Shown here in pieces: positions 11,794-62,521 of a stretch of 64,000 nucleotides of DNA. The DNA is from a virus. Its lineage: Duplodnaviria; Heunggongvirae; Uroviricota; Caudoviricetes. Location: IMG/VR virus record IMGVR_UViG_3300021963_000032. One strand, given 5' to 3'. The notes beneath the pieces are model-generated. The model saw nothing but the letters and a program-made list of their open reading frames with translations, did no database searches and was not told the DNA's origin. The number at the start of each line of letters is the position of its first letter. Positions within the stretch are counted from its first letter, which is position 1. The translations under genes were made by a program, and so were the position numbers.

Positions 11794-12110
11794 GCAGTTA
11801 GTAGAGCAAGTACAGTCATGGGTTAGCTGGATTGCAGCAGTAGGAAGAAGAAATCAAAATAATCCAAAGAAATACGAAAAAAAAGTTGCATACGAGAGTA
11901 AAAAGGAGTATGTTAGTAAAAAGAGTTAATACTTATAAGGGAATGAAAGCATTGAACAACATATTACGCAATACAACGATTAGCATGTCGAGACATGAAT
12001 GGTCAGCGTGTGGAGTGCCGTTTAATGTCCTTGATCCAAAACAGTATCAATCACAATCTCGGGTTTTAGTATGAAGTAACGAATAAAAAAGTTAAATTAT
12101 ATATAAAAGG

Positions 12111-12137
12111 AACCCGAGTCACAAGCTCGGGTTTTTT
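12111..12137 (+). terminator. Rho-independent terminator
   Basis: ACCCGAGtcacaagCTCGGG hairpin followed by TTTTTTT. Confidence 0.6.
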
Positions 12138-12141
12138 TATT

Positions 12142-12215
12142 GCTTTCTTAGCTCAGTTGGTAGAGCGCTTCACTTGTAATGAAGATGTCATCGGTTCGAC
12201 TCCGGTAGAAAGCTC
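12142..12215 (+). tRNA. tRNA-Thr(TGT)
   Basis: Hand-folded cloverleaf. GCTCAGTTGGTAGAGC D-arm, anticodon loop CTTGTAA, GGTTCGACTCC T-arm. Confidence 0.7.
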
Positions 12216-12249
12216 AGAACAAATGTTCTTTGACATATTGGCTTTAAAT

Positions 12250-12321
12250 TTTCCCCTCGTCTAATCGGCAGGACGTCTGGTTTTGGGCCAGAAGATCGAG
12301 GTTCGAACCCTTGGGGGAAAA
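12250..12321 (+). tRNA. tRNA-Gln(TTG)
   Basis: Acceptor TTTCCCC/GGGGAAA, anticodon loop TTTTGGG, T-loop TTCGAAC. Confidence 0.65.
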
Positions 12322-12328
12322 CAATAAT

Positions 12329-12412
12329 GGAAGTTTAATTAAGCTGGCGCTTAACCTAGTCTTGAAAACTAGTGGTACCGAAAGGTATGGGGATCGATAC
12401 CTCAGGCTTCCT
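12329..12412 (+). tRNA. tRNA-Ser(TGA), type II
   Basis: Acceptor GGAAGTT/GGCTTCC, anticodon loop CTTGAAA, long variable arm. Confidence 0.55.
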
Positions 12413-12539
12413 CTAAATCAATACAGAGTTGAATGATACGAGCCTCCAAAGTTCGAAAGGAGTCATGGTTTGATTGAAGCGAGCAACTGTGCGCTATACA
12501 AAAAGTGTTTGCATTCGGCAAATACTACACAGTTGACAA

Positions 12540-12612
12540 CTAGGTGTGGGAAAGTTGGTAATCCGCGTGGTTTGGGACCACGAGACCGCAGGTTCGAGCC
12601 CTGCCACTTAGA
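12540..12612 (+). tRNA. tRNA-Pro(TGG)
   Basis: Anticodon stem CGTGG/CCACG, loop TTTGGGA, T-arm GCAGGTTCGAGCCCTGC. Confidence 0.65.
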
Positions 12613-12681
12613 CTATTTTTTAATCACTAAAACCCCAGAAATTATGGAAAGTGACAAGAGCGACAAGAGTCGCAAACAGCC

Positions 12682-12755
12682 GATCTCGTAGCTCAGTTGG
12701 CTAGAGCACCTCACTTTTAATGAGGGAGTCGTGGGTTCGAGCCCCACCGGGATCA
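12682..12755 (+). tRNA. tRNA-Lys(TTT)
   Basis: Acceptor GATCTCG/CGGGATC, anticodon loop CTTTTAA. Confidence 0.7.
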
Positions 12756-12764
12756 CAAACAAAT

Positions 12765-12837
12765 GCTCCTTTAGCTCAGTTGGTAGAGCGCTGCCCTTAC
12801 ATGGCAGATGTCGCAAGTTCGAGCCTTGCAGGGAGTA
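12765..12837 (+). tRNA. tRNA-Val(TAC)
   Basis: Anticodon stem CTGCC/GGCAG, loop CTTACAT. Confidence 0.65.
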
Positions 12838-12847
12838 CAAATAATAT

Positions 12848-12931
12848 GCCGTAGCGCTGAAGTTGGAGAGTCGGGGCAGACTGTAAATCTGTTGTCGTAA
12901 GGCTGAGTAGGTTCGAATCCTACCTGCGGCA
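12848..12931 (+). tRNA. tRNA-Tyr(GTA), long variable arm
   Basis: Acceptor GCCGTAG/CTGCGGC, anticodon loop CTGTAAA, T-arm GTAGGTTCGAATCCTAC. Confidence 0.65.
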
Positions 12932-12936
12932 CAATT

Positions 12937-13008
12937 GGACAAGTAGCTCAGGGGTAGAGCAAGCGACTGTTAATCGCTGGGTCGGAGGTTCGATCCCTCC
13001 CTTGTCCG
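12937..13008 (+). tRNA. tRNA-Asn(GTT)
   Basis: Acceptor GGACAAG/CTTGTCC, anticodon loop CTGTTAA. Confidence 0.7.
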
Positions 13009-13166
13009 CAATGATATAATGTTGGGTTTCCTGGTAGTAACGGTATTAACCATGGTAAGTAAGCTACAAGATTCTAGTAATAAGCACCAGATGGATTCCG
13101 TGCGACTAAAGTATCAATAGTTTTAAGGGTGGCTCTAGTTCTATAAAAACGTAATTGCCTCCACCA

Positions 13167-13240
13167 GCGCTTATAGCTCAATTGGTTAGAGCACCCGCCT
13201 GATACGCGGAAGGTTATTGGTTCGATTCCAGTTAAGCGCA
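13167..13240 (+). tRNA. tRNA-Ile(GAT)
   Basis: Acceptor GCGCTTA/TAAGCGC, anticodon loop CTGATAC. Confidence 0.7.
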
Positions 13241-13298
13241 CAAAAAGAGGAATAACTAGTGTGGGTGCCTCAACTGCTGCAGCAGTACCACACTCAAT

Positions 13299-13384
13299 GG
13301 AGAGTAAACCTTGATGGCGATAGGGCTTGCCTGCTAAGCAATGTGTACCCGTAAGGGTATTTGGTTCGATTCCAATGCTCTCCG
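13299..13384 (+). tRNA. Probable type II tRNA, tentatively Ser(GCT)
   Basis: Acceptor GGAGAGT/GCTCTCC, T-arm TTGGTTCGATTCCAA, candidate anticodon loop CTGCTAA. The D-arm is atypical. Confidence 0.4.
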
Positions 13385-13389
13385 CAGCA

Positions 13390-13460
13390 TGCCGTAGGTC
13401 CTGGGTGGACGAGGTGGGCTCATATCCTGCTTTGGATTGGTTCGAACCCAATATACGGTA
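13390..13460 (+). tRNA. tRNA-Met/Ile2 family (CAT), copy 1
   Basis: Anticodon loop CTCATAT, T-arm ATTGGTTCGAACCCAAT. The acceptor pairing is slightly irregular. Confidence 0.5.
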
Positions 13461-13470
13461 CAACAAAGGT

Positions 13471-13635
13471 ATGATGAATATGAAAAAAGTAATAACAGGA
13501 AGTTTCGAATCATCGAGAGATGTACTTCGAGGAAAGGCTCCATCGCCCAAAGGACGATTGGACTGGCGTGGTCAGGCCGTACAAGTTTACAACAAGTTCG
13601 CTAAGAAGTTGACTAAACGTAAGTCAGCGTTGTGA
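13471..13635 (+). CDS. Small basic protein (54 aa) embedded in the tRNA array
   Basis: ATG preceded by AAAGG. The product is MMNMKKVITGSFESSRDVLRGKAPSPKGRLDWRGQAVQVYNKFAKKLTKRKSAL. A strong terminator follows immediately. Confidence 0.35.
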   Translation: MMNMKKVITGSFESSRDVLRGKAPSPKGRLDWRGQAVQVYNKFAKKLTKRKSAL

Positions 13636-13640
13636 ATTGA

Positions 13641-13670
13641 CCCTCCCCACTTACGGAGTGGGGTTTTTTT
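13641..13670 (+). terminator. Rho-independent terminator
   Basis: CCCTCCCCACttacgGAGTGGGG followed by TTTTTTT. Confidence 0.65.
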
Positions 13671-13674
13671 AAAT

Positions 13675-13748
13675 GGTGGTTGTAGCTCAATCGGAAGAGC
13701 GCCAGATTGTGATTCTGGAGGTAGTGGGATCGAAACCCACCATTCACC
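13675..13748 (+). tRNA. tRNA-His(GTG) with encoded G-1
   Basis: Anticodon stem CCAGA/TCTGG, loop TTGTGAT. An extra 5' G pairs with the C discriminator. Confidence 0.6.
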
Positions 13749-13754
13749 CAATAT

Positions 13755-13840
13755 GCCTCGGTGGTGAAATTGGTAAACACGCTGGATTTAAGCTCCAGTG
13801 GGCAGTAATGTCCTTGCGGGTTCGAGCCCCGCCTGAGGTA
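13755..13840 (+). tRNA. tRNA-Leu(TAA), type II
   Basis: Anticodon stem CTGGA/TCCAG, loop TTTAAGC, long variable arm, T-arm GCGGGTTCGAGCCCCGC. Confidence 0.65.
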
Positions 13841-13989
13841 CTAAAGATGATACAAAGCGTAGAATGGTAAGCGTGGAGAGACGTGGCGCAAGGGTACACA
13901 CTAAGGATAAGCAATCAGTGCTCAACTCTCTAATGGTGTGTGAAGCCACTGAGGCAAGATTCCTGATAAAGCCATTTATCATCTTTTTT

Positions 13990-14061
13990 GCCCACATAGT
14001 TCAATGGATAGAACGTCCGGCTACGAACCGGGAGATAGGAGTTCGAATCTCTTTGAGGGTA
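13990..14061 (+). tRNA. tRNA-Arg(ACG)
   Basis: D-arm GTTCAATGGATAGAAC, anticodon stem TCCGG/CCGGG, loop CTACGAA. Confidence 0.6.
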
Positions 14062-14066
14062 CAAAT

Positions 14067-14139
14067 GCCCCTATAGTTCAACTGAATAGAACATCCCCCT
14101 TCTAAGGGGAAGATTGGAGTTTGACTCTCTGTGGGGGTA
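14067..14139 (+). tRNA. tRNA-Arg(TCT)
   Basis: Anticodon stem TCCCC/GGGGA, loop CTTCTAA. The T-loop TTTGACT is atypical. Confidence 0.5.
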
Positions 14140-14176
14140 CGATCCGATGTGTGATCCGAGCTAGGTCGGATAATTT

Positions 14177-14249
14177 ACTCCAGTAGCTCAGTTGGTAGAG
14201 CACCGGATTCCAAATCCGGGTGTCGGAGGTTCGAGTCCTTCCTGGTGTG
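14177..14249 (+). tRNA. tRNA-Trp(CCA)
   Basis: Anticodon stem CCGGA/TCCGG, loop TTCCAAA, T-arm GGAGGTTCGAGTCCTTC. Confidence 0.65.
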
Positions 14250-14317
14250 CATAAGACGGGAGGCGAGTGTTGAGGGTACAACCGTTAGGATACCTCAGCC
14301 AAGTCCTCCCCGAAGAA

Positions 14318-14390
14318 GGACAGGTAGCTCAGTCGGTAGAGCACGGCGCTGAAGACGCTGGTGTCGGGGGTTCGAATCCCTCTCTGTCCA
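14318..14390 (+). tRNA. tRNA-Phe(GAA)
   Basis: Acceptor GGACAGG/TCTGTCC, anticodon loop CTGAAGA. Confidence 0.7.
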
Positions 14391-14395
14391 CAAAT

Positions 14396-14465
14396 GCTCA
14401 GGTTGATCTTGGAGGTCGGTAGGTCTGCAAAACTTACAGAGTTGGTTCGATTCCAACCTTGAGCT
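14396..14465 (+). tRNA. tRNA-Cys(GCA), compact 70 nt
   Basis: Acceptor GCTCAGG/CTTGAGC, anticodon stem TAGGT/ACTTA, loop CTGCAAA, short D-arm. Confidence 0.55.
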
Positions 14466-14509
14466 CAAAAATAATTGTTCATAACTTTGTAATTATTTTG
14501 ATATAACTG

Positions 14510-14546
14510 TTGCAAACACCACAACAATGGAGTATCTTTAGGTATA
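14510..14546 (+). promoter_or_regulatory. Conserved phage promoter motif (TTGCA...TATCTTTAGGTATA) driving the tRNA sub-cluster
   Basis: CTGTTGCAAACACC...AGTATCTTTAGGTATAAG, preceded by the GTTCATAACTTT upstream element. Confidence 0.55.
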
Positions 14547-14591
14547 AGAAAGAGCAAAGGAGTTCATTGACGTAGTGGTAAACAAACAAAC

Positions 14592-14679
14592 AGTCAGGTG
14601 ATAGTAATTGGTAACTGCGGTGGTGCGTTAAGAGCGCTTAATATCCATCGGATTACAGGTTCGAGTCCTGTCCTGACTA
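14592..14679 (+). tRNA. Non-canonical tRNA-like element, 88 nt, anticodon unresolved (possibly Leu-like type II)
   Basis: Perfect acceptor AGTCAGG/CCTGACT and canonical T-arm ACAGGTTCGAGTCCTGT. The internal region (GGTGG...21 nt...CCATC) does not fold into a standard anticodon arm. Confidence 0.4.
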
Positions 14680-14699
14680 TAAAAAAGTTAACAAAAGTG

Positions 14700-14730
14700 T
14701 TGACTTATCGAAACAAAAGGAGTATATTTA
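14700..14730 (+). promoter_or_regulatory. Promoter variant (TTGAC...TATATTTA) with duplicated leader GTTCATTGACATAGTGGTAAACAAACAAAC
   Basis: Near-duplicate of the 14510-14591 promoter-leader unit, placed upstream of the second tRNA sub-cluster. Confidence 0.5.
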
Positions 14731-14765
14731 TAAAAGTTCATTGACATAGTGGTAAACAAACAAAC

Positions 14766-14847
14766 GCGCGAGTGGTGGAATTGGTAGACACGCCGGATTT
14801 AGGATCCGGTGCCGAAGGGTTTGAGGGTTCGAGTCCCTCCTTGCGTA
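14766..14847 (+). tRNA. tRNA-Leu(TAG), type II
   Basis: Anticodon stem CCGGA/TCCGG, loop TTTAGGA, long variable arm, T-arm GAGGGTTCGAGTCCCTC. Confidence 0.65.
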
Positions 14848-14943
14848 CAAAAAGATCAACTAGTCACTGTAATCAATCAGTGGGCGTCAGTAAGTATTCT
14901 GAGCGACGTTTAAATCCTGACAGCAATGTTGATTTTTTATTTT

Positions 14944-15017
14944 GCAGGCATAGCTCAATTGGCTAGAGCACTAGCCTTCCAAGCTGGGGGTTGTGGGTTC
15001 GAGTCCCACTGCCTGCT
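14944..15017 (+). tRNA. tRNA-Gly(TCC), with 3' CCA encoded
   Basis: Acceptor GCAGGCA/TGCCTGC, anticodon loop CTTCCAA, T-arm GTGGGTTCGAGTCCCAC followed by TCCA. Confidence 0.7.
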
Positions 15018-15022
15018 CCAAT

Positions 15023-15096
15023 GGGGGATTAGCTCAGCTGGCTAGAGCACTGCACTTGCACTGCAGGGGTCAACGGTTCGAATCCGTTATCCTCCA
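15023..15096 (+). tRNA. tRNA-Ala(TGC)
   Basis: Anticodon stem CTGCA/TGCAG, loop CTTGCAC, T-arm AACGGTTCGAATCCGTT. Confidence 0.7.
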
Positions 15097-15101
15097 CAAT
15101 T

Positions 15102-15173
15102 GGTCCATTGGTGTAGTGGCTAACATACCACCCTGTCACGGTGGTGCCGCGAGTTCGATTCTCGCATGGACCG
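15102..15173 (+). tRNA. tRNA-Asp(GTC)
   Basis: Acceptor GGTCCAT/ATGGACC, anticodon loop CTGTCAC. Confidence 0.7.
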
Positions 15174-15183
15174 CAAACAATAC

Positions 15184-15255
15184 GCTGCCATCGTCTAACG
15201 GTTAGGACCTATGGTTTTCATCCATAAAATCGGAGTTCGATTCTCCGTGGCAGTA
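15184..15255 (+). tRNA. tRNA-Glu(TTC)
   Basis: TCGTCTAACGGTTAGGAC D-arm, anticodon stem TATGG/CCATA, loop TTTTCAT. Confidence 0.7.
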
Positions 15256-15350
15256 CAAAGATCGGAGTAATTAACCGATCCTAACAAGTAAGTATGCATA
15301 TAGCTTAAAGAGATTTGACGTCACTAATTTCTGCATGCTTCTCTTGATTA

Positions 15351-15426
15351 ACTACTTATGGTGTAAATTGGTTTGCACACGGGTCACACGGCCCGAGGGT
15401 TATAGGTTCGAGTCCTATGGGTAGTT
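15351..15426 (+). tRNA. tRNA-like with atypical anticodon loop, identity unresolved
   Basis: Acceptor ACTACTT/GGGTAGT and T-arm ATAGGTTCGAGTCCTAT are canonical. The anticodon stem CGGG/CCCG encloses a 6- or 8-nt loop (T)CACACG(G). Confidence 0.35.
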
Positions 15427-15432
15427 CAACAT

Positions 15433-15505
15433 AGCGGGGTGGAGAAGATGGTATTCTCGGCGGGCTCATAACCCGAGGACGCTGGTTCGAGTCCGGCCCC
15501 CGCTA
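15433..15505 (+). tRNA. tRNA-Met/Ile2 family (CAT), copy 2
   Basis: Acceptor AGCGGGG/CCCCGCT, D-stem GAGA/TCTC, anticodon loop CTCATAA. Confidence 0.6.
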
Positions 15506-15601
15506 CAAATACGTAAACCTAAGTACCCATACCGCTCACGGTGGGCTAAGTAAGATACAATTTCGTACTGCGGGAAGTAGAATGCTTAGGAGCGTGTTTA
15601 C

Positions 15602-15684
15602 GGCTAGGAGTGTAAAAGGCGTCGGTGCTGATTCCATCTGTTGAAGATGGTTGCTCATTGTAGGTTCGAATCCTATCCTAGCTG
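15602..15684 (+). tRNA. Putative type II tRNA-like element, anticodon unresolved
   Basis: Acceptor GGCTAGG/CCTAGCT and T-arm GTAGGTTCGAATCCTAT. The internal hairpin CCATCtgttgaaGATGG could be the anticodon arm (TTG) or the variable arm. Confidence 0.3.
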
Positions 15685-15689
15685 CAGAG

Positions 15690-15763
15690 GGTCCTTTAGC
15701 TCAGTTGGTTAGAGCAGCTCGCTCATAACGAGAAGGTCCCAGGTTCGAATCCTGGATGGACCA
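15690..15763 (+). tRNA. tRNA-Met/Ile2 family (CAT), copy 3
   Basis: GCTCAGTTGGTTAGAGC D-arm, anticodon loop CTCATAA, T-arm CCAGGTTCGAATCCTGG. Confidence 0.6.
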
Positions 15764-15772
15764 CACAAAAAG

Positions 15773-15803
15773 TTGCAAATAAGAAAAGAAAGTTGTATAT
15801 TAA
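15773..15803 (+). promoter_or_regulatory. Promoter motif (TTGCAAAT...TGTATATTAAA)
   Basis: Same TTGCA -33 and TAnnTTTA -7 architecture as the other promoter instances. Confidence 0.45.
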
Positions 15804-15819
15804 AAGAAAAGAAACAGTT

Positions 15820-16740
15820 ATGAAGAATCATTCACTATCACCAAAAGGTTTATCGCTATCTCAAGCGCAATCAGTATCCAATCTTTGTAATCAAAGAGCA
15901 AAGGATATCCAGGCCAATATTTCAGTAATCAACAATGCACAGAAGGTTATTACCATTGACGGTAAAGACTACGTTAAGACTGTAGGTAATGCAATCCCTT
16001 ACGAGATCGTGGATCTTTTGAAAGAGAAAGCACGCTTACATGCTGCCCAAGCTTTCTTGATGGAGAACATCAAAGCTAAAGACGAAGCGCTGAGTGAGAT
16101 CAAGAATAGACGATTCGTTTCTGGTATCGAAGGTCCTGAGAGCCCACGTTATATGGAACCAGAATACATCGATCCAGTTGATGAGCAGTGGGGTTGGGAA
16201 CAGCTATCTACTAAAGAGTACTGTGAGTTCTTAGAAGCTGAAGCATTTGCATCACACGTTGGACAATTCATCCACGGAGGTGGTAAGTTGGATAAACTTC
16301 GTAAGGAGTTACCTACAATGGAATTGTTGGAGTGGGCTGAGATTGAGGATGGCAAGAAGACGCCAGTAGTAGTTAATGCACACCACACGTCAGAGTATTT
16401 AGCTGACTTGCATGAGGATCTTTCTGGACTTCATAGAGATTACGAGCAAAAAGTAAACTACTATAAAGCTAAGGTGAAGAACCTAGTGACTTTGGAGAAT
16501 GCTCGCATTGCTCGAGTTAATGCAGACAACCAGTCAGCAGCTAACGAAATCAACGACAAGTTGATTACAGAGTACAAAACTGCAAGACAAGCTTGGTTAG
16601 CCAAAGTTTCGAAAGCAACAAATGAGTTTGAAGAAGCTCGTCAGAAAGAGACCGCTCGAATCGCAGCTCTACGAATTGAGGTATCACCGATATTCAAAGA
16701 AGTGATTGATGGCTTTCTTTCTAAGTTAGGTAAAGAGTAA
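15820..16740 (+). CDS. hypothetical protein
   Basis: ORF. The start is taken downstream of the promoter motif. The product is a coiled-coil-rich acidic protein. Confidence 0.45.
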   Translation: MKNHSLSPKGLSLSQAQSVSNLCNQRAKDIQANISVINNAQKVITIDGKDYVKTVGNAIPYEIVDLLKEKARLHAAQAFLMENIKAKDEALSEIKNRRFVSGIEGPESPRYMEPEYIDPVDEQWGWEQLSTKEYCEFLEAEAFASHVGQFIHGGGKLDKLRKELPTMELLEWAEIEDGKKTPVVVNAHHTSEYLADLHEDLSGLHRDYEQKVNYYKAKVKNLVTLENARIARVNADNQSAANEINDKLITEYKTARQAWLAKVSKATNEFEEARQKETARIAALRIEVSPIFKEVIDGFLSKLGKE

Positions 16741-17075
16741 GGTGGTAGGGAGCTAGACATGAGTCGATGCTCCCTTACTTTTGTGTTGGGATAGTTAGGT
16801 TTTCTTATACAAGATATGATATATATTCATTATACTAAGAAACGCTGGATGTAGGGCACTGCCCTTATTTAGCCCTGAAACTATCGCTTCCCTGCAAACT
16901 CCAAAAGCTGAGATAGAACTCAACGTTAGACAAGTTACTCCTCTCCGGTCGAGATAATTGGCTAGCAAACCGAGACTTAGTTTTTGATTTTGCCTTTGTA
17001 GCAGGGAAGGTCTTTGATTTGGAATTTAGCATTGGTTTAGTCTATATCCCTAATTATCTCAACAACTTATTTTAT

Positions 17076-17179
17076 AGTCAGGTGGCGGAATGGTAGACGC
17101 TCAGGGTGATAATTAAGTAGTTCGGATTATAAATACAACCTCGATGGACTACATGTAGGTTCGAATCCTGCCCTGACTA
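17076..17179 (+). tRNA. Non-canonical 104-nt tRNA-like element, Leu-like D-arm, possibly intron- or insert-containing
   Basis: The acceptor AGTCAGG/CCTGACT is identical to the element at 14592. D-arm GCGGAATGGTAGACGC, T-arm GTAGGTTCGAATCCTGC, with about 30 extra nt internally. Confidence 0.35.
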
Positions 17180-17224
17180 CAAGCGTAGAAGTTCATTGAC
17201 ATAAAATAATAGGAGAACCACAAT

Positions 17225-17620
17225 ATGGAAACAACAATGTTTGCTTTAGGGATTCTTGCGATGATAATGGTGATGTTAATTACTGTTGTTGTTGTTGGTA
17301 TTGTTAAGGTATTTAAGATGAGTAAACAAATCAAAGATTTCTACACATACCTGCATGAGTCAGAAAGATCTACAAGTGATTACATTCGTAGAGTAGAGCA
17401 AAATACTGATATGCAGTTTCGGGATGTTAATAGAGATATCAACATGATCGAACATACGATGATGAATCGAATGGATCACGGATTGATAGCAGTAAATGAT
17501 CAAATTACAGATTCAGTTACTCAAAGTAATTCGTATACAGACAAACGAATCGATAAGCTAATTGATACCTACTTTGAGGTACAAGAAGCAAAACAATCAA
17601 AAAAACTAATTAAAGGATAA
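17225..17620 (+). CDS. hypothetical membrane protein
   Basis: N-terminal TM helix (LGILAMIMVMLITVVVVGIV). Confidence 0.4.
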   Translation: METTMFALGILAMIMVMLITVVVVGIVKVFKMSKQIKDFYTYLHESERSTSDYIRRVEQNTDMQFRDVNRDINMIEHTMMNRMDHGLIAVNDQITDSVTQSNSYTDKRIDKLIDTYFEVQEAKQSKKLIKG

Positions 17621-26915: not shown

Positions 26916-27365
26916 ATGAAAAAAGACACAGTTATATTCGATTTAGATGGCACATTGGCTTTGATTGATGAAAGAAGAGCTTTGGCCGCAAAACCAAACG
27001 GAAAGATCAATTGGAAAATATTCTTTGCTCCAGAGAACATTGCATTGGATAAACCAAATACACCGGTTATGTCGGCATTTCACGGATTTAAGCGCCAAGG
27101 GTTCGATGTAGTTATTTTCTCAGGAAGAGATGAAATAAGTCGCGCTGAAACCATAGCATGGCTAGACGGCTACGATATTGAACCAGATGCCTTGAAGATG
27201 AGACCACAAGGATCTTTCACACCGGATGATATCTTGAAGAAACAGTGGTTAGATGAGTTGGGAGCAGACAAAGTGTTCTGTGTATTCGATGACAGAGATA
27301 AAGTAGTACAAATGTGGAGAGACAATGGATTAACTTGTTTCCAAGTAGCTCCGGGTAATTTTTAA
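26916..27365 (+). CDS. HAD-family phosphatase (polynucleotide 3'-phosphatase-like)
   Basis: VIFDLDGTLA HAD motif I and FSGRDE motif II region, adjacent to the kinase, CCA enzyme and RNA ligase. Confidence 0.5.
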   Translation: MKKDTVIFDLDGTLALIDERRALAAKPNGKINWKIFFAPENIALDKPNTPVMSAFHGFKRQGFDVVIFSGRDEISRAETIAWLDGYDIEPDALKMRPQGSFTPDDILKKQWLDELGADKVFCVFDDRDKVVQMWRDNGLTCFQVAPGNF

Positions 27366-27368
27366 GTT

Positions 27369-27755
27369 ATGAAAGAGTTATTCTTATTAAGAGGTTTGCC
27401 TGGAAGTGGTAAGTCTACGTTAGCTAAAACATTAGGAGGACTTCACTACGAAGCTGATATGTACTTTACAAATGCTGCAGGAGACTATAAGTTTGATCCC
27501 ACTGGTTTACGTAGCGCACATGAGTGGTGCCGAGATTTAGTCTGGGTAGCTATGACTAAGTCTGAACCACTTGTAGTAGTATCAAACACATTCACTCAGG
27601 AGTGGGAGATGGAAGCTTACTACAAATTAGCTGAGAAGTATGGATATCGAGTATCGTCATTGATAGTTGAGAACCGTCACGGAGGAGTAAATGAGCATGG
27701 AGTACCAGCTGACAAGTTGGAACAAATGAAGAATAGATTCGAAGTAAAACTATAA
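27369..27755 (+). CDS. P-loop polynucleotide 5'-kinase-like protein
   Basis: LLRGLPGSGKSTLAK resembles the T4 Pnk-type kinase Walker A. Confidence 0.5.
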   Translation: MKELFLLRGLPGSGKSTLAKTLGGLHYEADMYFTNAAGDYKFDPTGLRSAHEWCRDLVWVAMTKSEPLVVVSNTFTQEWEMEAYYKLAEKYGYRVSSLIVENRHGGVNEHGVPADKLEQMKNRFEVKL

Positions 27756-27772
27756 AAAGTTTTGCACAACTG

Positions 27773-27810
27773 TTGCATCAACGGAAAATAGGTACGACCT
27801 TTAGATATAA
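27773..27810 (+). promoter_or_regulatory. Conserved phage promoter (TTGCA-N22-CTTTAGATATAA)
   Basis: Family motif upstream of the ATG at 27828. Confidence 0.5.
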
Positions 27811-27827
27811 TTAAAAACACACAAGTT

Positions 27828-28577
27828 ATGCCAAAGATTTACAAAGTAGGAGGTTGCGTTAGGGATACGTTTCTAGGTATTGATTCGAAGGATATTGATT
27901 TTACCTTTGTGTTAGATAACATTGACAGATCCGTAGAGGAAGGGTTTCAGATAATGACTGAGTACCTAGAACATAAGGGATTCACAATCTTCTTATCGAC
28001 TCCACAGATGTTTACAATTAGAGCTAAGTTCCCAAGTACAGACGGACCTTATGCTAGATACTGCGGTATGGTTGCAGACTTTGTGTTAGCGAGAAAGGAA
28101 GTTGGATATGTTCCAGGAACGAGACAACCGATTCTTGAGTTAGGTACGTTAGAAGATGACCTTATTAGAAGAGACTTCACTCTGAATGCACTAGCTGTAG
28201 ATGAGGACGGAAATCTAATTGATCTTTTCAATGGCGTTAACGATCTAAAGGTAGGCTTACTCAGAACTCCATTAGATCCAAAAGTCACAATGATGGATGA
28301 TCCATTGAGGTTTTTAAGAGCTTTGAGGTTTAGTATCACTAAAGACTTTACGATTGCTCTTGAGATATTCGATGCTATACAAAACCAACCTGAGATTCTA
28401 GAGAAGCTAGAAAAAGTAGTCTCTGCAGAGAGAATTAGAGAAGAGGTTTTCAAAATGATGAATGCTGACACTGTAAAGACTTTGGAGTTGTTTAGAATCG
28501 TAGAAGAGATGGTTCCAGGATTCACTAAGCTAGTATTCAGCAAAGGTCTATGGTTGAAACCAACATTTGAACAATAA
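27828..28577 (+). CDS. cca: Class II nucleotidyltransferase: CCA-adding enzyme / poly(A) polymerase head domain
   Basis: VGGCVRDTFLGIDSKDIDF and RRDFTLNAL signatures. Confidence 0.65.
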   Translation: MPKIYKVGGCVRDTFLGIDSKDIDFTFVLDNIDRSVEEGFQIMTEYLEHKGFTIFLSTPQMFTIRAKFPSTDGPYARYCGMVADFVLARKEVGYVPGTRQPILELGTLEDDLIRRDFTLNALAVDEDGNLIDLFNGVNDLKVGLLRTPLDPKVTMMDDPLRFLRALRFSITKDFTIALEIFDAIQNQPEILEKLEKVVSAERIREEVFKMMNADTVKTLELFRIVEEMVPGFTKLVFSKGLWLKPTFEQ

Positions 28578-28595
28578 ATAAATACACAATAAGAA

Positions 28596-29735
28596 ATGGA
28601 AAATAACAACAGCGTATGTTACGTAGGACTCGTAACAGAAGTAAAAGCCATCGAAGGAGCTGACAACATTGAGTTAGCAGTAGTTGGTGGATGGAATGCA
28701 ATCACTAAGAAAGGTGAATATGCAGTAGGTGATAAAGTTGTAGTAGCTACAACAGATGCAGTCATTCCAGTTGGGTTATCTGACTTAATGCAAGTGACTA
28801 ACTACTTGCGTAAAGGACAACGAGTGAGAACCGTTAAGTTGCGAGGAGTATACTCTGAGTGCTTATTAATCCCATTTAAGTATCTAGCTCCTAAGTCATT
28901 GGAAAAGAATGTTAAGGATGGTGATGACATGATGGAGATCTTAGGAGTAACCAAGTACGAGCCACCGGTAAGACAAGTTCAGTTATCATCTGGAAGAAAG
29001 GTCAAATACAAAGACAATCCAAACTTCCATGTCTACTACAAGTTCCCTAACTTGAAGAATGTAGCTGGGATGTTTACTGAGGAAGATGTAGTTGAGATCA
29101 CTAGAAAGATTCATGGTACCAATGCTCGCTATGGTATTGTCAAAAAGACTAGCTTGTCTTTCATGGACAAAGTTAAAAAGTTCTTCCGCTTAGGTGGAGA
29201 GTGGATTGATTATGAGTATGTGTACGGATCTCACAACGTTGAGAAAGGTTCTGACTCACAAGGATTCTACTCTACAGATGTTTGGAGAACAATTGCTGAC
29301 AAGTACCAAATCAAAGAAAAGCTTTGGACGATTGTTAAGGAAGAGTACACTCCAGAACAGTTGGGAGCAGGGATTGTAATGTATGGTGAAATCTACGGAG
29401 CAGGTATTCAGAAGAATTACGAGTACGGATTAACTGATATGGAGTTTGTCGGGTTCGACTTCTCTGAGGATGGAACATACTTTGCACCACTCACATCACA
29501 ATATGCTATCAAAAACGTGATGGGATTACCATATGTAGAGCAATTGCATTTCGGACCATGGACACAAGAAGTACAAGACAAGTATGTGTTCAATAACTTC
29601 ATCGAAGGTACTAAGGTGCCACACGAGGGAATTGTAATCAAGTACCACACTGGTCAGCGAAACAAAGTAGCTAAAGTAATCAACCCAGACTACTTGATCT
29701 ACGGAGAGAAACACAACGTAGGAGACTCACACTAA
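28596..29735 (+). CDS. ATP-dependent RNA ligase (Rnl2/Rnl5-like) with N-terminal OB-like domain
   Basis: Motif I KIHGTN, motif IV EGIVIK, motif V KVAKVINP. N-terminal VGLVTEVKAIEGADNIELAVVGGWNAI OB-like segment. Confidence 0.6.
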   Translation: MENNNSVCYVGLVTEVKAIEGADNIELAVVGGWNAITKKGEYAVGDKVVVATTDAVIPVGLSDLMQVTNYLRKGQRVRTVKLRGVYSECLLIPFKYLAPKSLEKNVKDGDDMMEILGVTKYEPPVRQVQLSSGRKVKYKDNPNFHVYYKFPNLKNVAGMFTEEDVVEITRKIHGTNARYGIVKKTSLSFMDKVKKFFRLGGEWIDYEYVYGSHNVEKGSDSQGFYSTDVWRTIADKYQIKEKLWTIVKEEYTPEQLGAGIVMYGEIYGAGIQKNYEYGLTDMEFVGFDFSEDGTYFAPLTSQYAIKNVMGLPYVEQLHFGPWTQEVQDKYVFNNFIEGTKVPHEGIVIKYHTGQRNKVAKVINPDYLIYGEKHNVGDSH

Positions 29736-32532: not shown

Positions 32533-32568
32533 TTGCATAAACGAATAGGAAGGAGTATCTTTAGGTAT
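32533..32568 (+). promoter_or_regulatory. Conserved phage promoter (TTGCA-N22-CTTTAGGTATAA)
   Basis: Family motif upstream of the ATG at 32584. Confidence 0.55.
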
Positions 32569-32583
32569 AAACAAAAGCAAGTT

Positions 32584-33441
32584 ATGATAGTATTAGATTT
32601 AACAAACCCAGTAAACTCCTCAGTGAAGTATCAGGTTAATAAGTTTCCTGACGGACAGCAGTCCATTACTTTACTTAATAGTCATCATTTTTGGACATTG
32701 AAGAATGAGACAATAAAGATCCATAGTCACCTTAATTCGTTCGCAGACTTGGAGTTAATTATTTGTGCTAAGAAGGTTTTAGATAACCTAGGAACTCCTC
32801 AAGTAATACTACACGTTCCATACTTCCTAGGAGCTAGATCGGATCGTAGGTTTGAAGAGGGAACAGTTCACTACCTTAAAGAGGTAATCTGTCCTATTAT
32901 CAACTCACTGAAGTTTGATGCAGTGGTAGTATTAGATCCTCACTCAGATGTACTTGAAGCTTGTCTCGATAACATGGTGAAGATCGACAACCACTTAATT
33001 GTGAAGTCTGCATTGACTGCAATTGACAATAAGAATGATGCACGAGATCGAATCTGCTTAGTGTCACCTGACGCTGGTGCTTACAAGAAGATCTTTGATG
33101 TAGCTAAGAAGTTCGACATTGATAAAGTGATTACAGCTACAAAGGTCCGAGACTTGAAGACCGGTAAGATCTTACATACAGAAGTTCCTACACCAGACAT
33201 GCACAACGACATTAAATATGTGATTGTCGATGACATCTGTGATGGTGGTAGAACTTTCACTGAGATTGCAAAGGCTATCAAAGCTGTTAGACCAACTGCT
33301 AAAATCTATCTAGTAGTAACTCACGGAATCTTCTCAGGTGGTGAAAAGCCTTTGAAAGAGTACTTTGAGCATGTATACACTACTAATAGTGTGAAGGAAG
33401 GTGAGTCAGATTTTGTTACACGATACAACGTATTCAAATGA
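32584..33441 (+). CDS. prs: Ribose-phosphate pyrophosphokinase homolog (PRPP synthetase-like, candidate ADP-ribose pyrophosphokinase)
   Basis: VIVDDICDGGRTFTEIAK matches the PRPP/PRT-binding motif DDxxDTGxT. The N-terminal Prs-like domain is present. The start is set after the promoter. Confidence 0.6.
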   Translation: MIVLDLTNPVNSSVKYQVNKFPDGQQSITLLNSHHFWTLKNETIKIHSHLNSFADLELIICAKKVLDNLGTPQVILHVPYFLGARSDRRFEEGTVHYLKEVICPIINSLKFDAVVVLDPHSDVLEACLDNMVKIDNHLIVKSALTAIDNKNDARDRICLVSPDAGAYKKIFDVAKKFDIDKVITATKVRDLKTGKILHTEVPTPDMHNDIKYVIVDDICDGGRTFTEIAKAIKAVRPTAKIYLVVTHGIFSGGEKPLKEYFEHVYTTNSVKEGESDFVTRYNVFK

Positions 33442-33878
33442 TAGTGTACCACAAAGACTTCTTCATCAACAGATTAGTGAAGGAGTGGCTCAACCACGAG
33501 AAGTTAGTCATCGCATGCGACTTAGATGACACAATCATTCCATACAACCTAGAGCTAACACAAAGCTGTGCAGATGTTGTTGAGTTGATACTAGATTGCC
33601 AAAAGGAAGGAATTGTATTCATTATCAATACAGCACGAGAACGATCCAAGTTGATTGATAGTGTAGGCCAAGTAGAGGATTTAGGAATCAAAGTACACTC
33701 AGTTAACGAAATGCCTCCCTATTGGACACTACCAATTGGAGTATCAGGTAAAGTGTATGCTAACATATTCTTAGACGATCGAGGTGGATTGGAATGTACC
33801 AAGCACCAATTGCGTAAAGCATTGGAGATAGTAAAACAGATAAGAGAACAACAAAAAATACAGAATGAAAGTAATTAA
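33438..33878 (+). CDS. HAD-like hydrolase
   Basis: VIACDLDDTIIP matches the DxDxT motif. Confidence 0.4.
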   Translation: MIVYHKDFFINRLVKEWLNHEKLVIACDLDDTIIPYNLELTQSCADVVELILDCQKEGIVFIINTARERSKLIDSVGQVEDLGIKVHSVNEMPPYWTLPIGVSGKVYANIFLDDRGGLECTKHQLRKALEIVKQIREQQKIQNESN

Positions 33879-34341
33879 ACCACCACATGCAATAACTGAA
33901 AGAACGTACGGACATCCAACTATCTTCCTAGCTGGAAGTATTGAGATGGGTAAAGCAGAGGATTGGCAATCACAGATGGAATGGCTATTTCGTGATAAAG
34001 ATGTAACCATATTTAATCCTCGCAGAGAGGAATGGGATTCGTCTTGGACTCAGGACATTGAGAATCCACAATTCTATCAGCAAGTGAATTGGGAGTTGAA
34101 TGCATTAGAGAAGAGTGATCTAATCTTTATGTACTTTGCACCTGGAACGCAATCACCAATATCACTACTAGAGCTTGGACTATTTGCACACACCGGTAAG
34201 TTGGTTGTATGCTGTCCGGAAGGTTTTTGGAGAAAGGGTAATGTTGATATCGTTTGTGATAGATATGGCATTCCAGTATTCTCAAATGTAGTAGCAGCTC
34301 AGGGAGAATTATACAGCAGATGGTTAGAATTATTTAAGTAA
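33865..34341 (+). CDS. Nucleoside 2-deoxyribosyltransferase-like (Rcl/YtoQ family) protein
   Basis: IFLAGSIEMG...FNPRREEWDS...LIFMYF pattern of the deoxyribosyltransferase fold. Confidence 0.45.
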   Translation: MKVIKPPHAITERTYGHPTIFLAGSIEMGKAEDWQSQMEWLFRDKDVTIFNPRREEWDSSWTQDIENPQFYQQVNWELNALEKSDLIFMYFAPGTQSPISLLELGLFAHTGKLVVCCPEGFWRKGNVDIVCDRYGIPVFSNVVAAQGELYSRWLELFK

Positions 34342-34345
34342 ACTG

Positions 34346-34383
34346 TTGCATATTCAAAAAGGAATAAGTAAATTTAGGTATAA
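34346..34383 (+). promoter_or_regulatory. Conserved phage promoter (TTGCA-N22-ATTTAGGTATAA)
   Basis: Family motif upstream of the ATG at 34399. Confidence 0.5.
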
Positions 34384-34398
34384 CAAAAAAAGAGAAAT

Positions 34399-62105: not shown

Positions 62106-62485
62106 GGGGCTGCTTTGGCTTTGACAAGCAGACGCGTTCTTTGAGATGATGCAAGCAGGGTTAGATGGAAACCCTTAAACACCTATCACAACATAAATGC
62201 AAACGTAGAACTTTCTACATGGACCTTCGAAGATGTTATGGCATTCGTAGGTGGTGAATTAGCAGTAGCTGCATAGTCGCTCCCGTATCACTCATGGGAC
62301 ATTAAATAGAAGTGAACGAAAGAGTACATCTCGCTGACTCATTAAATAAGAGTGGGGAACATTGGTCCGATTGACGATGTTGAAGAACTGATCGGTATTT
62401 TGTCTAGTTAGAAAACGAGACTAAGCTTGTGAACGAGTCTGTTTGAATATCTGTTTGGACGAGGGTTCGACCCCCTCCAGCTCCA
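62106..62485 (+). ncRNA. ssrA: tmRNA (SsrA)
   Basis: 5' GGGGCTG...GACAAGCAGACGCG and 3' GGACGAGGGTTCGACCCCCTCCAGCTCCA form a tRNA-like acceptor and T-arm. The internal tag ORF ...GCATTCGTAGGTGGTGAATTAGCAGTAGCTGCATAG encodes ...AFVGGELAVAA* ending in the typical LAxAA. Confidence 0.6.
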
Positions 62486-62521
62486 CTATCTCTCGTGTCG
62501 AAAGGCACAACTTGTGTGTTA

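Follow-up and report, generated by a model that had tools for sequence, protein, structure and literature searches.

The DNA analysed here is a 64,000-nucleotide (nt) stretch of the Caudoviricetes virus record IMGVR_UViG_3300021963_000032, referred to as the window, which carries on its + strand (~12142–15764) a dense island of transfer RNA (tRNA) genes. We consider it probable that this is a decoding-RNA island with a complete minimal set of 25 tRNAs, aided by boxA elements, in a large uncultivated phage likely to infect Bacteroidota. The observations bearing on this reading concern gene content, conservation, synteny, motif identity, covariation, and codon statistics. Large phage tRNA arrays are already known. 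What is new here is the precise fit to a minimal set, a leader of boxA type, structured RNAs conserved in the spacers, and a family of tRNA-shaped elements with cassette-like cores.

ARAGORN at default settings identified 23 co-oriented tRNAs between 12142 and 15764, and 21 of these were also found by Rfam at its gathering threshold. tRNA-Cys (33.7 bits) was detected by Rfam only in E-value mode (E≤10, applied to 11900–17400), bringing the Rfam total to 22 with scores no lower than the gathering score. Two serine tRNAs, with anticodons TGA and GCT, were called only at relaxed ARAGORN thresholds; both have good acceptor, anticodon, variable, and T arms. Together, the default and relaxed searches yield 25 anticodons and cover all 20 amino acids, on the + strand within 3.6 kb, with 11 of the spacers being 4–10 nt in length. 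An earlier note on this DNA had proposed about 25 tRNAs from hand folding, and the tRNA finder kept rather than rejected most of these candidates (23 of 25 by default). The same note correctly placed an encoded CCA on tRNA-Gly (directly after 14944–15017) and the G-1 of tRNA-His (G at 13675, facing C73). Its list of tRNA-shaped elements was incomplete, lacking X1, X3, and X4 inside the interval and X2 outside it (see below). Nearly all tRNA and tRNA-like genes between 12142 and 15764 are followed by an N73-C-A(-A) trailer, the short spacers being CAAAT-like. This trailer could act as a signal for 3' processing; alternatively, C74 could be templated.

The 25 tRNAs provide exactly one tRNA per codon box or half-box, with no redundancy, plus initiator and Ile2 candidates. 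Each of seven family boxes has a single U34 anticodon, and CGN is served by ACG. The split boxes have one G34 anticodon per NNY pair and one U34 anticodon per NNR pair, and CCA and three CAT anticodons complete the set. Standard wobble suffices for 83% of the 15,389 codons in 69 window genes, a share that rises to 99.9% with U34 reading four ways. Four-way reading makes 60 of the 61 sense codons readable; the sole unread codon, CGG, is the rarest (13 uses). NNA is the most used codon in every family box. The codon usage of the phage is co-adapted to its own one-per-box tRNA set, and the pattern is adaptive and internally coherent, because 99.9% of codons are read, CGG is the rarest, NNA is favored, and the set is of minimum size. 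Four-way decoding by this set is putative and would require U34 to be unmodified or suitably modified. The 25 isotypes of the Plasmodium apicoplast are described as the lowest number in any known translation system (PMC12069591), and this number matches the theoretical minimum under superwobbling (PMC12069591; PMC3499367).

The island lies directly 5' of a gene for a conserved 303-amino acid (aa) protein, which has 83 confirmed relatives in IMG/VR (~50–60% identity, on contigs up to 434 kb). The best 80 of these 83 supplied the related loci (L-numbers) referred to hereafter. Most of the relatives scanned have the same kind of tRNA array directly 5' of the 303-aa gene, with similar gene order, and the array and this gene are syntenic in dozens of IMG/VR contigs, mostly of 100–430 kb and from freshwater. 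Because array position and gene order are kept among these relatives, these comparisons indicate that the island was not captured recently but is old and has been conserved within a large uncultivated lineage. The genes surrounding the island match PHROG families, and its relatives are viral contigs. A search of GenBank phages for DNA similarity found no genome-level relative, only matches to single tRNAs (best 90–95% identity), and no cultured phage was found to share the flanking protein or DNA with the window. The top match of a neighboring 661-aa protein is in the 635-kb uncultured phage LR745206.1, which has no tRNAs within 20 kb of the homolog.

The host probably belongs to the Bacteroidota, because four features of the phage point to this phylum. 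A Shine-Dalgarno motif stands before no more than 9 of 78 genes, fewer than at the random rate, and upstream regions are A/T-rich (for example at 2200, 3694, and 19717). The conserved promoter cassettes match TTG-N20-TAnnTTTA, which is a Bacteroidetes promoter type. Five of 11 metagenome-assembled genome (MAG) contigs with an X-type tRNA-like element, from lakes, were binned as Flavobacterium, Sediminibacterium, or Chitinophagaceae. Lastly, tRNA-Glu is 90.5% identical to the tRNA-Glu of Cellulophaga phages.

The three CAT tRNAs belong to three types that recur across the family of related arrays. They had been proposed to be an initiator, an elongator Met, and an Ile2 tRNA; one is indeed initiator-like and the other two are distinct conserved types, either of which could by its sequence be the elongator or Ile2. 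Type B is the initiator-like one by its sequence features. Its anticodon arm (GCGGG-CTCATAA-CCCGA) has three consecutive G:C pairs (29–31:39–41), and its D stem has A11:U24 (GAGA/TCTC, read from sequence). In place of the C1·A72 mismatch, the window and L004 have A1–U72, a weak Watson–Crick pair, while most of the relatives listed have a mismatch at this position (C·A, C·U, U·U, or A·A). Weak 1–72 pairs are tolerated by the formylase of E. coli, and type B closely resembles E. coli tRNA-fMet. Type C has a CAU anticodon with U33 and A37 (loop CTCATAA), and its acceptor stem (GGTCCTT/ATGGACC) contains C4–G69 and C5–G68, which are determinants for E. coli TilS (PMC12069591). C4–G69 is present in most type C homologs inspected, with C5 variable. 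Position 27–43 is G·A and not the G·U of the E. coli pattern, TilS determinants being species-specific. In the window, as in most related arrays of comparable layout, no other tRNA stands between type C and the 303-aa gene. Type A has neither C4–G69 nor C5–G68 and is conserved in relatives as a type. We tentatively assign type C to Ile2 (lysidine) and type A to elongator Met; the reverse assignment is also possible. BLAST against E. coli did not help to classify the CAT tRNAs, their best match being tRNA-Ile (76%), and the types could not be told apart by whether tRNA-Ile(TAT) accompanies them in relatives.

Internal promoters and terminator-like hairpins split the array, in agreement with the sub-operons suggested by the earlier note. 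Two duplicated promoter-leader cassettes had also been described; both are real and their leaders are identical, with the 30-nt leader occurring exactly twice (14562–14591 and 14736–14765; zero copies expected in shuffled sequence). The first cassette, though, adjoins X1 and not a listed tRNA, and would drive this candidate non-decoding tRNA-like RNA. The leader had been taken for an RNase P-proximal element, a view at odds with its invariant part, AGTTCATTGAC(A/G)TA with the core GTTC(A/T)TTGACAT, which is a boxA-type motif found also at 12225 and 17191. Promoter and leader are conserved upstream of the first array tRNA in relatives; in L027, L036, and L044, the promoter follows a T-run and precedes the first array tRNA. 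In the window, as in more than 25 related loci, the motif is placed downstream of a conserved promoter and its predicted transcription start and ahead of the first tRNA. When the window was pooled with 46 related loci to give 47 non-redundant sequences, G[TC]TC[TA]TTGA was 12.6-fold denser inside arrays than outside. Of its 58 occurrences, 34 have a tRNA no more than 40 nt downstream, the usual form being AGAGTTCATTGACATATTGG some 20 nt ahead of the first tRNA.

The γ-proteobacterial boxA consensus is GYTCTTTAANA (PMC5725501). The copy at 12225 (GTTCTTTGACA) matches it at 10 of 11 positions and the copies at 14562, 14736, and 17191 at 9 of 11, with the proviso that this γ-proteobacterial consensus may not be that of the host. 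Putative boxA elements upstream of CRISPR arrays are AGTTCTTTGACATGTTGAAA in Odoribacter splanchnicus, CGCTCTTTGACAAGTTGGTA in Haliscomenobacter hydrossis, and AGTTCTTTGACAATCAAAAT in Allochromatium vinosum (PMC7665894, supplementary file 4). The core 12-mer of the 12225 copy, TGTTCTTTGACATATTGGCT, is identical to the putative O. splanchnicus boxA. As described by Stringer et al., transcription of long untranslated arrays depends on BoxA and Nus factors if Rho termination is to be avoided (PMC7665894). Because the 3.6-kb untranslated tRNA array is a substrate of the same kind as these, we read the leader as a promoter followed by boxA. The motif is best read as a Nus-factor antitermination signal and not as an RNase P leader, with GUUCAUUGACAU and GUUCUUUGACAU being candidate NusB/NusE targets. 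The tRNA-proximal CAAACAAAC is of the usual island spacer type (N73-C-A-A, CAAAT-like). We found no literature report of boxA in a phage tRNA array.

From these features we infer how the island may be expressed and processed, how it may depend on Nus factors, and how it may act against host defenses. The island would be transcribed as several units from host-type promoters. BoxA in the nascent leader would recruit host Nus factors, and the Nus-bound polymerase would pass through an array that is long, untranslated, and rich in hairpins, escaping Rho-dependent (and perhaps intrinsic) termination in the manner of ribosomal RNA (rRNA) operons and CRISPR arrays. Host RNase P would then cleave the 5' ends, the near-universal N73-C-A-A trailer would be trimmed at the 3' end, and the phage nucleotidyltransferase would add CCA, an activity needed for all tRNAs other than tRNA-Gly because the latter alone encodes CCA. 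This nucleotidyltransferase is part of a tRNA-care operon (26916–29735) that also encodes the phosphatase and kinase of a split polynucleotide kinase (PNK) and an RNA ligase, and the window further encodes a transfer-messenger RNA (tmRNA). The tRNA set, PNK, RNA ligase, and tmRNA together would keep phage translation going if host tRNAs were scarce, mismatched, or cleaved by defenses. The presence of these genes fits an insurance of the phage's own translation. Phage tRNAs rescue infection from tRNA-cleaving defenses (PMC10264068, PMC11464382, PMC11555353). A complete set along with repair and CCA enzymes fits an anti-defense role better than selective codon compensation, the two roles not being exclusive. 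The predicted tag of the tmRNA is unusually long (ANVELSTWTFEDVMAFVGGELAVAA). A boxA-like 9-mer, GTTCTTTGA, also occurs inside the tmRNA at 62136; about one such 9-mer per strand is expected by chance in 64 kb.

Several observations weigh against a boxA-aided, fully functional decoding island. Four terminator-like hairpins adjoin the 5' ends of tRNAs Thr, His, Arg(ACG), and Gly without room for a promoter, an arrangement explained only if these hairpins are read through. BoxA would explain passage of the polymerase, but Nus antitermination is established against Rho and not against intrinsic terminators. The promoter scan by itself found seven promoters versus 8.9 expected in shuffled sequence, and the promoter calls rest on conservation. 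The commonest variant in the window, GTTCATTGA, departs from the published consensus at boxA position 5, with A in place of T. Four tRNAs (Ser-TGA, CAT type A, Cys, and Tyr) have deviant structures that could impair them. TilS was not seen in the window, and decoding of AUA would therefore depend on a host enzyme. The leader motif might also be something other than boxA, namely a promoter for a phage RNA polymerase or sigma factor or an endonuclease processing site. Its conserved length of ~20 nt (AGAGTTCATTGACATATTGG) exceeds the 11–12-nt boxA core, and it sits at a near-fixed 16–23 nt from the tRNA 5' end. We nevertheless consider this alternative unlikely, as a general phage promoter would be far commoner than the 4–5 copies seen in 64 kb with ~110 genes, four of these copies being at RNA genes. 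In addition, a conserved host-type promoter lies ~25 nt upstream of the motif, and Bacteroidetes boxA instances share the extension of the motif (GACATGTTGA, GACAAGTTGG) (PMC7665894).

With respect to the role of the tRNAs, pure codon compensation would mean that the tRNAs serve only A/U-ending codons, for which a GC-richer host is poorly equipped, with no part in anti-defense. The window has 39% GC, its codon usage favors NNA and NNU, and the U34 and G34 anticodons match this preference, making such an explanation possible, if doubtful. A compensating set would be selective, whereas here there is one tRNA per box, including the initiator and those for Trp and Met, amino acids without codon bias, accompanied by PNK, RNA ligase, CCA-adding enzyme, and tmRNA. 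It is highly improbable that the array is a recently captured host tRNA operon, or one decaying into pseudogenes, with no adaptive pattern. Poor or absent covariance-model scores for Ser-TGA, CAT type A, Cys, Tyr, X1, X3, and X4 would suit decay. However, the order and types of the tRNAs, deviant ones included, are kept across phages whose flanking protein is only 50–60% identical. GenBank phage DNA offers at best the single-tRNA matches noted above, and codon–anticodon co-adaptation is coherent. In a scan of bacterial genomes made with the 5' half of the X elements, this half was found in 11 MAG contigs and no isolate genome.

The four X elements resemble tRNAs except in their cores. Acceptor stem, T arm with TTCRANN loop, discriminator, and tRNA-like 3' trailer are present in all of X1–X4. 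ARAGORN called them at relaxed settings only, with 6- or 8-nt loops or pseudo-introns in place of a 5-bp anticodon stem and 7-nt loop. X1 and X2 share the acceptor stem AGTCAGG/CCTGACT, discriminator A, and a canonical T arm. X3 and X4, which have no Rfam match (E≤10), are presumably processed like tRNAs because they have a normal CA trailer and 4–6-nt spacing to the next tRNA. X arms occur in at least 20 related loci. A scan with the 25-nt 5' half found at least 120 stretches in viral contigs, and, applied to 185,579 species genomes of bacteria and archaea, found 11 MAG contigs only. The family comprises 165 unique elements (78–183 nt), 27 of which are called by ARAGORN, with scattered anticodons. 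A matching T arm and 3' strand were found in 122 of the 143 elements anchored by the 5' half alone; among these 122, CCTGACT occurs in 101, ACAGG/CCTGT in 103, and discriminator A in 106. Rare acceptor variants are compensated (AGTTAGG/CCTAACT, ATTAAAG/CTTTAAT, and TGTCTAA/TTAGACA).

The region between the D and T arms, in contrast to the arms, has no common fold (constrained folds), sometimes spills into the D loop, and falls into 143 sequence clusters among the 165 cores. L004 and L010 are ~98–99% identical over 460 nt outside the X core, while the ~45-nt core cannot be aligned. Wholesale core replacement was observed in 5 of 8 pairs with flank identity of ~0.9 or higher, with changes in length (e.g., 80 vs. 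30 nt). Because cores are replaced outright between near-identical flanks, the pattern in these alignments is one of cassette exchange and not of drift. Genomes often have two to three nearby X copies, each with a different core, as in L082 (three in ~700 nt), L013 (3805 and 3968), L099, L114, and L165. A third family of non-canonical tRNA-like elements, A(A/G)T(A/C)GGTTGGTGTCAACGGGA...CTAGGGTTAACATGGACG...GGGTTCGAATCCC (84–87 nt), often occurs just upstream of X (e.g., L036 4188–4272, L042 2732–2816, and L052 197–280), with no clear member in the window.

Several explanations for X were considered and rejected. Mimicry of a host tRNA-Leu is not supported, as the 5' half is in no isolate genome and the 11 MAG contigs look like mis-binned phage. 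An intron-bearing tRNA would leave no anticodon arm after excision, as the conserved parts stop at the D arm and resume at the T arm. A diversity-generating retroelement or inversion is inconsistent with alternative cores that differ in length, cannot be aligned, and are not reverse complements. As possible spacer-like guides, the cores had no match beyond other X elements in ~2 Mb of related phage DNA. No linked gene was found downstream of X, the neighbors being heterogeneous.

X1–X4 could instead be dead tRNA-Leu-type pseudogenes, with drifting anticodon regions and transcribed as passengers. The lack of a consistent anticodon arm, the scattered ARAGORN anticodons, and the lack of a consistently associated gene would all suit this explanation. 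We judge it quite improbable, since the arms are near-invariant in more than 100 viral contigs despite the multitude of core clusters, differing acceptor stems are fully compensated, X1 has its own promoter and boxA leader, and cores are replaced with a change in length between loci whose 120-nt flanks are 92–100% identical. A tentative and speculative alternative, proposed by analogy, is that the AGTCAGG...CCTGACT elements (X1, X2, and the related X4) constitute a natural tRNA-scaffold system. The invariant body would serve host processing, CCA-tagging, and stability. The 30–130-nt core would be a fast-turnover functional cassette (e.g., a decoy, sponge, or antisense RNA against variable host or competitor factors) exchanged by recombination at the arms under diversifying selection.

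The spacers of the island are more than filler, as they carry a conserved small open reading frame (ORF), three conserved structured RNAs, and the tRNA-shaped, predicted non-decoding X1, X3, and X4. A terminator-flanked 54-aa ORF had been noted previously. The ORF (13471–13635) exists and is followed by a 3' hairpin and T7, but it has no 5' terminator and is likely to encode 51 aa. It is a real small basic protein by its conservation, with four homologs in a large protein collection (69–84% identity). The start is probably ATG 13480, because all four homologs have 51 aa. Homologs lie just before tRNA-His in the related arrays L214–L216; none was found in the 80 IMG/VR loci, and no PHROG family was matched. 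Two of these arrays also have DUF559-like (endonuclease-type) and RNaseH-like ORFs between tRNA genes (L214 3843–4550 and 6835–7287; L216 1378–2085), which suggests invasion by mobile genes.

Spacer RNA A has a 36-nt core that is 94–100% identical in six related loci. Spacer RNA D occurs in 15 loci (70–88% identity) and has invariant blocks (GGAGAG, TACACAC...GTGTGTG, and AGATTCCTGATAAA), variable hairpins with insertions, and two compensatory pairs. Spacer RNA J occurs in nine loci, with compensatory changes in 11 of 21 predicted pairs. No Rfam family was matched by A, D, or J (E≤10 in 11900–17400; E≤0.05 in the homologous spacers of L004). A hammerhead-like reading of A and D was rejected, as the CUGAUGA-like and GAAA-like blocks are neither ordered nor spaced as it would require and there is no Rfam match. 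A further structured spacer, at 14849–14943, has no homolog in the related loci searched. Coordinates of all features are given in Table 1.

Table 1. Features of the tRNA island and of associated loci in the window, with supporting evidence.
Feature	Coordinates	Strand	Evidence
Terminator-like hairpin (intrinsic type) + T7, ending 3 nt before tRNA-Thr	12106..12141	+	Hairpin scan
tRNA-Thr(TGT)	12142..12214	+	ARAGORN, Rfam 69.5 bits
boxA-like GTTCTTTGACATATTGG, between Thr and Gln, 8 nt before tRNA-Gln	12225..12241	+	Motif match
tRNA-Gln(TTG)	12250..12321	+	ARAGORN, Rfam
tRNA-Ser(TGA), class II, AT-rich 3-bp D stem, T loop ATCGATA	12329..12412	+	Relaxed ARAGORN only; no Rfam match
Spacer RNA A, invariant core GAATGATACGAGCC..CAAAGTTCGAAAGGAGTCA in covarying outer helix	12416..12475	+	Conservation
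tRNA-Pro(TGG)	12540..12612	+	ARAGORN, Rfam
tRNA-Lys(TTT)	12682..12755	+	ARAGORN, Rfam
tRNA-Val(TAC)	12765..12837	+	ARAGORN, Rfam
tRNA-Tyr(GTA), class II	12848..12931	+	ARAGORN, Rfam 39.1 bits
tRNA-Asn(GTT)	12937..13008	+	ARAGORN, Rfam
tRNA-Ile(GAT)	13167..13240	+	ARAGORN, Rfam
tRNA-Ser(GCT), class II	13299..13384	+	Relaxed ARAGORN; Rfam tRNA-Sec 40.1 bits, sub-threshold; 94% identical in L004, L010
tRNA(CAT) type A, 70 nt, reduced D arm, G1-U72, G7.A66	13391..13460	+	ARAGORN; no Rfam match
Small basic ORF, probably 51 aa from ATG 13480 (54 aa from 13471)	13480..13635	+	Four homologs
Terminator-like hairpin (intrinsic type; 8 bp, 5 GC) + T7 (13645-13663), ending 5 nt before His G-1	13645..13670	+	Hairpin scan
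tRNA-His(GTG) including encoded G-1 (13675) facing C73	13675..13748	+	ARAGORN, Rfam
tRNA-Leu(TAA), class II	13755..13840	+	ARAGORN, Rfam
Spacer RNA D, ~150-nt structured non-tRNA RNA; AT-rich hairpin + T-run end adjoins tRNA-Arg	13842..13989	+	Conservation
tRNA-Arg(ACG)	13990..14061	+	ARAGORN, Rfam
tRNA-Arg(TCT)	14067..14139	+	ARAGORN, Rfam
tRNA-Trp(CCA)	14177..14249	+	ARAGORN, Rfam
tRNA-Phe(GAA)	14318..14390	+	ARAGORN, Rfam
tRNA-Cys(GCA), short D arm	14396..14465	+	ARAGORN; Rfam 33.7 bits
Predicted promoter of X1 unit, TTGCAA-N17-TATCTT(TA)	14510..14540	+	Read from sequence; aligns with promoter of L027, L036, L044
Leader copy 1, boxA-like GTTCATTGACGT then AGTGGTAAACAAACAAAC	14562..14591	+	Exact repeat and conservation
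X1, acceptor AGTCAGG/CCTGACT, discriminator A, canonical T arm, no regular anticodon arm	14592..14679	+	Relaxed ARAGORN; no Rfam match
Predicted promoter of Leu(TAG) unit, TTGACT-N17-TATATT	14700..14728	+	Promoter scan, 10/12 matches
Leader copy 2, boxA-like GTTCATTGACAT then AGTGGTAAACAAACAAAC	14736..14765	+	Exact repeat
tRNA-Leu(TAG), class II	14766..14847	+	ARAGORN, Rfam
Structured spacer, terminal T-run adjoins tRNA-Gly (terminator-like)	14849..14943	+	Read from sequence
tRNA-Gly(TCC) with encoded CCA (15018-15020)	14944..15020	+	ARAGORN, Rfam
tRNA-Ala(TGC)	15023..15096	+	ARAGORN, Rfam
tRNA-Asp(GTC)	15102..15173	+	ARAGORN, Rfam; 100% identical in L004
tRNA-Glu(TTC)	15184..15255	+	ARAGORN, Rfam
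X3, 6- or 8-nt 'anticodon' loop, CA trailer, 6-nt gap to next tRNA	15351..15426	+	Relaxed ARAGORN; homologs in L086, L043
tRNA(CAT) type B, initiator-like, A1-U72	15433..15505	+	ARAGORN, Rfam
Spacer RNA J, ~95-nt structured RNA	15508..15600	+	Conservation
X4, short subtype	15602..15684	+	Relaxed ARAGORN; L187 homolog with AGTCAGG/CCTGACT acceptor
tRNA(CAT) type C, canonical shape	15690..15763	+	ARAGORN, Rfam
Conserved 303-aa protein gene, after array in related array-carrying contigs	15829..16740	+	No PHROG family
X2, 104 nt, AGTCAGG family, Leu-like D arm, 52-nt irregular core	17076..17179	+	Rfam tRNA 36.3 bits
boxA-like GTTCATTGACAT, between X2 and membrane-protein gene 17225-17620	17191..17202	+	Motif match
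Split PNK: phosphatase ORF 26916-27365, kinase ORF 27369-27755	26916..27755	+	PHROG/Pfam
Short tRNA nucleotidyltransferase (CCA-adding enzyme family), 249 aa	27828..28577	+	Pfam PolyA_pol 5e-20; phrog_24229 3.9e-60
RNA ligase	28596..29735	+	phrog_968 1.6e-59; Pfam RNA_ligase
Phage tmRNA	62106..62488	+	ARAGORN (62106-62486); Rfam 98.6 bits

Elsewhere in the window, nearly all genes are on one strand, and PHROG and Pfam matches include NAMPT, thymidylate synthase, and DNA ligase in addition to the RNA ligase, PNK, and tRNA nucleotidyltransferase. Genes of NAD+ salvage are located at 32533–35910 and nearby (+), namely NAMPT (34399–35910, phrog_448 1.5e-197), and a PRPP-synthetase-like phosphoribosyltransferase (32533–33441, +); a cytidylyltransferase-like match also occurs within the window. 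Between the 303-aa gene and X2, conservation of the intergenic DNA at 16880–17075 (+) extends to 69 fetched loci and is wider than that of the tRNA spacers. Many of its positions are ≥90% invariant (AAAACTGAGATAGAACTCAA, GTGGCTAGC, GAGACTTAG, and GGAAGGTC...TAGTCTATAT), and it contains a GCTTCC/GGAAGG helix, with no Rfam match to this segment. It is probably another structured RNA, an alternative being a minus-strand 55-aa ORF (16865–17032). In L013, a DUF805b RNA motif (Rfam RF02914, 38.8 bits, gathering score 35.6) lies 3' of the array (13743–13775).

A virus with a theoretical-minimum decoding set and tuned codon usage provides a natural test of the extent to which a phage can uncouple its translation from the host tRNA pool, a topical question as many defense systems kill by tRNA cleavage. 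If the boxA reading is true, Nus antitermination extends from rRNA and CRISPR arrays to viral tRNA arrays, and the boxA motif is a simple marker of host phylum for uncultivated phages. The at least three conserved structured RNAs and the widespread X family are testable candidates for new phage RNA functions, which routine tRNA annotation misses or mislabels as odd tRNAs. If X is a tRNA scaffold, phage tRNA arrays double as expression platforms for undescribed hypervariable small RNAs.

The boxA elements of rRNA operons and CRISPR arrays likewise form a short leader element before a long untranslated structured transcript, and putative Bacteroidetes instances have a core identical to that of the phage motif (PMC7665894, PMC5725501). 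The phage motif differs from these in preceding phage tRNA sub-operons and one mRNA, and is putative here, from sequence. Huge phages (Al-Shayeb et al. 2020, PMC7162821) are similarly large and uncultivated, with many tRNAs, tmRNA, and tRNA-related enzymes. The huge-phage relative LR745206.1 differs in having no tRNAs near the homolog, and the relatives of the window are mostly smaller freshwater contigs of the size range given above. Like the apicoplast, the phage has 25 tRNAs, U34 superwobble (putatively) in family boxes, and three CAU genes, of which one depends on lysidine to read AUA. Unlike that of the apicoplast, the phage set is virus-borne and has access to host tRNAs as well. Large tRNA clusters occur in the cultured phages T5 (~24 tRNAs), KVP40, and mycobacteriophage Bxz1 (tRNAs and tmRNA), and share with the window co-oriented tRNAs in a few kb, small ORFs, and some tRNAs that are odd or pseudogenes. 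Cellulophaga phage phi4:1 (Lightbulbvirus Cba41) also has a Bacteroidota host, along with 23 annotated tRNAs (two pseudo) and several ORFs of 33–50 aa. No boxA-like leader was found beside its tRNAs and no AGTCAGG-type element, in contrast to the window array, which has boxA-like leaders, X elements, and exactly one tRNA per codon box.

We found no description in the literature of the X family or of comparable tRNA-like RNAs in phages, and we know of no counterpart that combines conserved arms with a swapped core. The closest architecture is that of engineered tRNA scaffolds, in which a cargo RNA replaces the anticodon arm, and the acceptor, D, and T arms are kept for processing and stability. 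Such scaffolds were reportedly developed by Ponchon and Dardel for recombinant RNA expression. X shares with them a kept body and an inserted cargo, the difference being that X is natural and they are man-made. Within phage tRNA clusters, T4 has two stable RNAs, species 1 and 2 (rnaC and rnaD), which are co-transcribed and co-processed with the tRNAs. These are similar in kind to X, being non-tRNA or tRNA-like stable RNAs inside a phage tRNA cluster.

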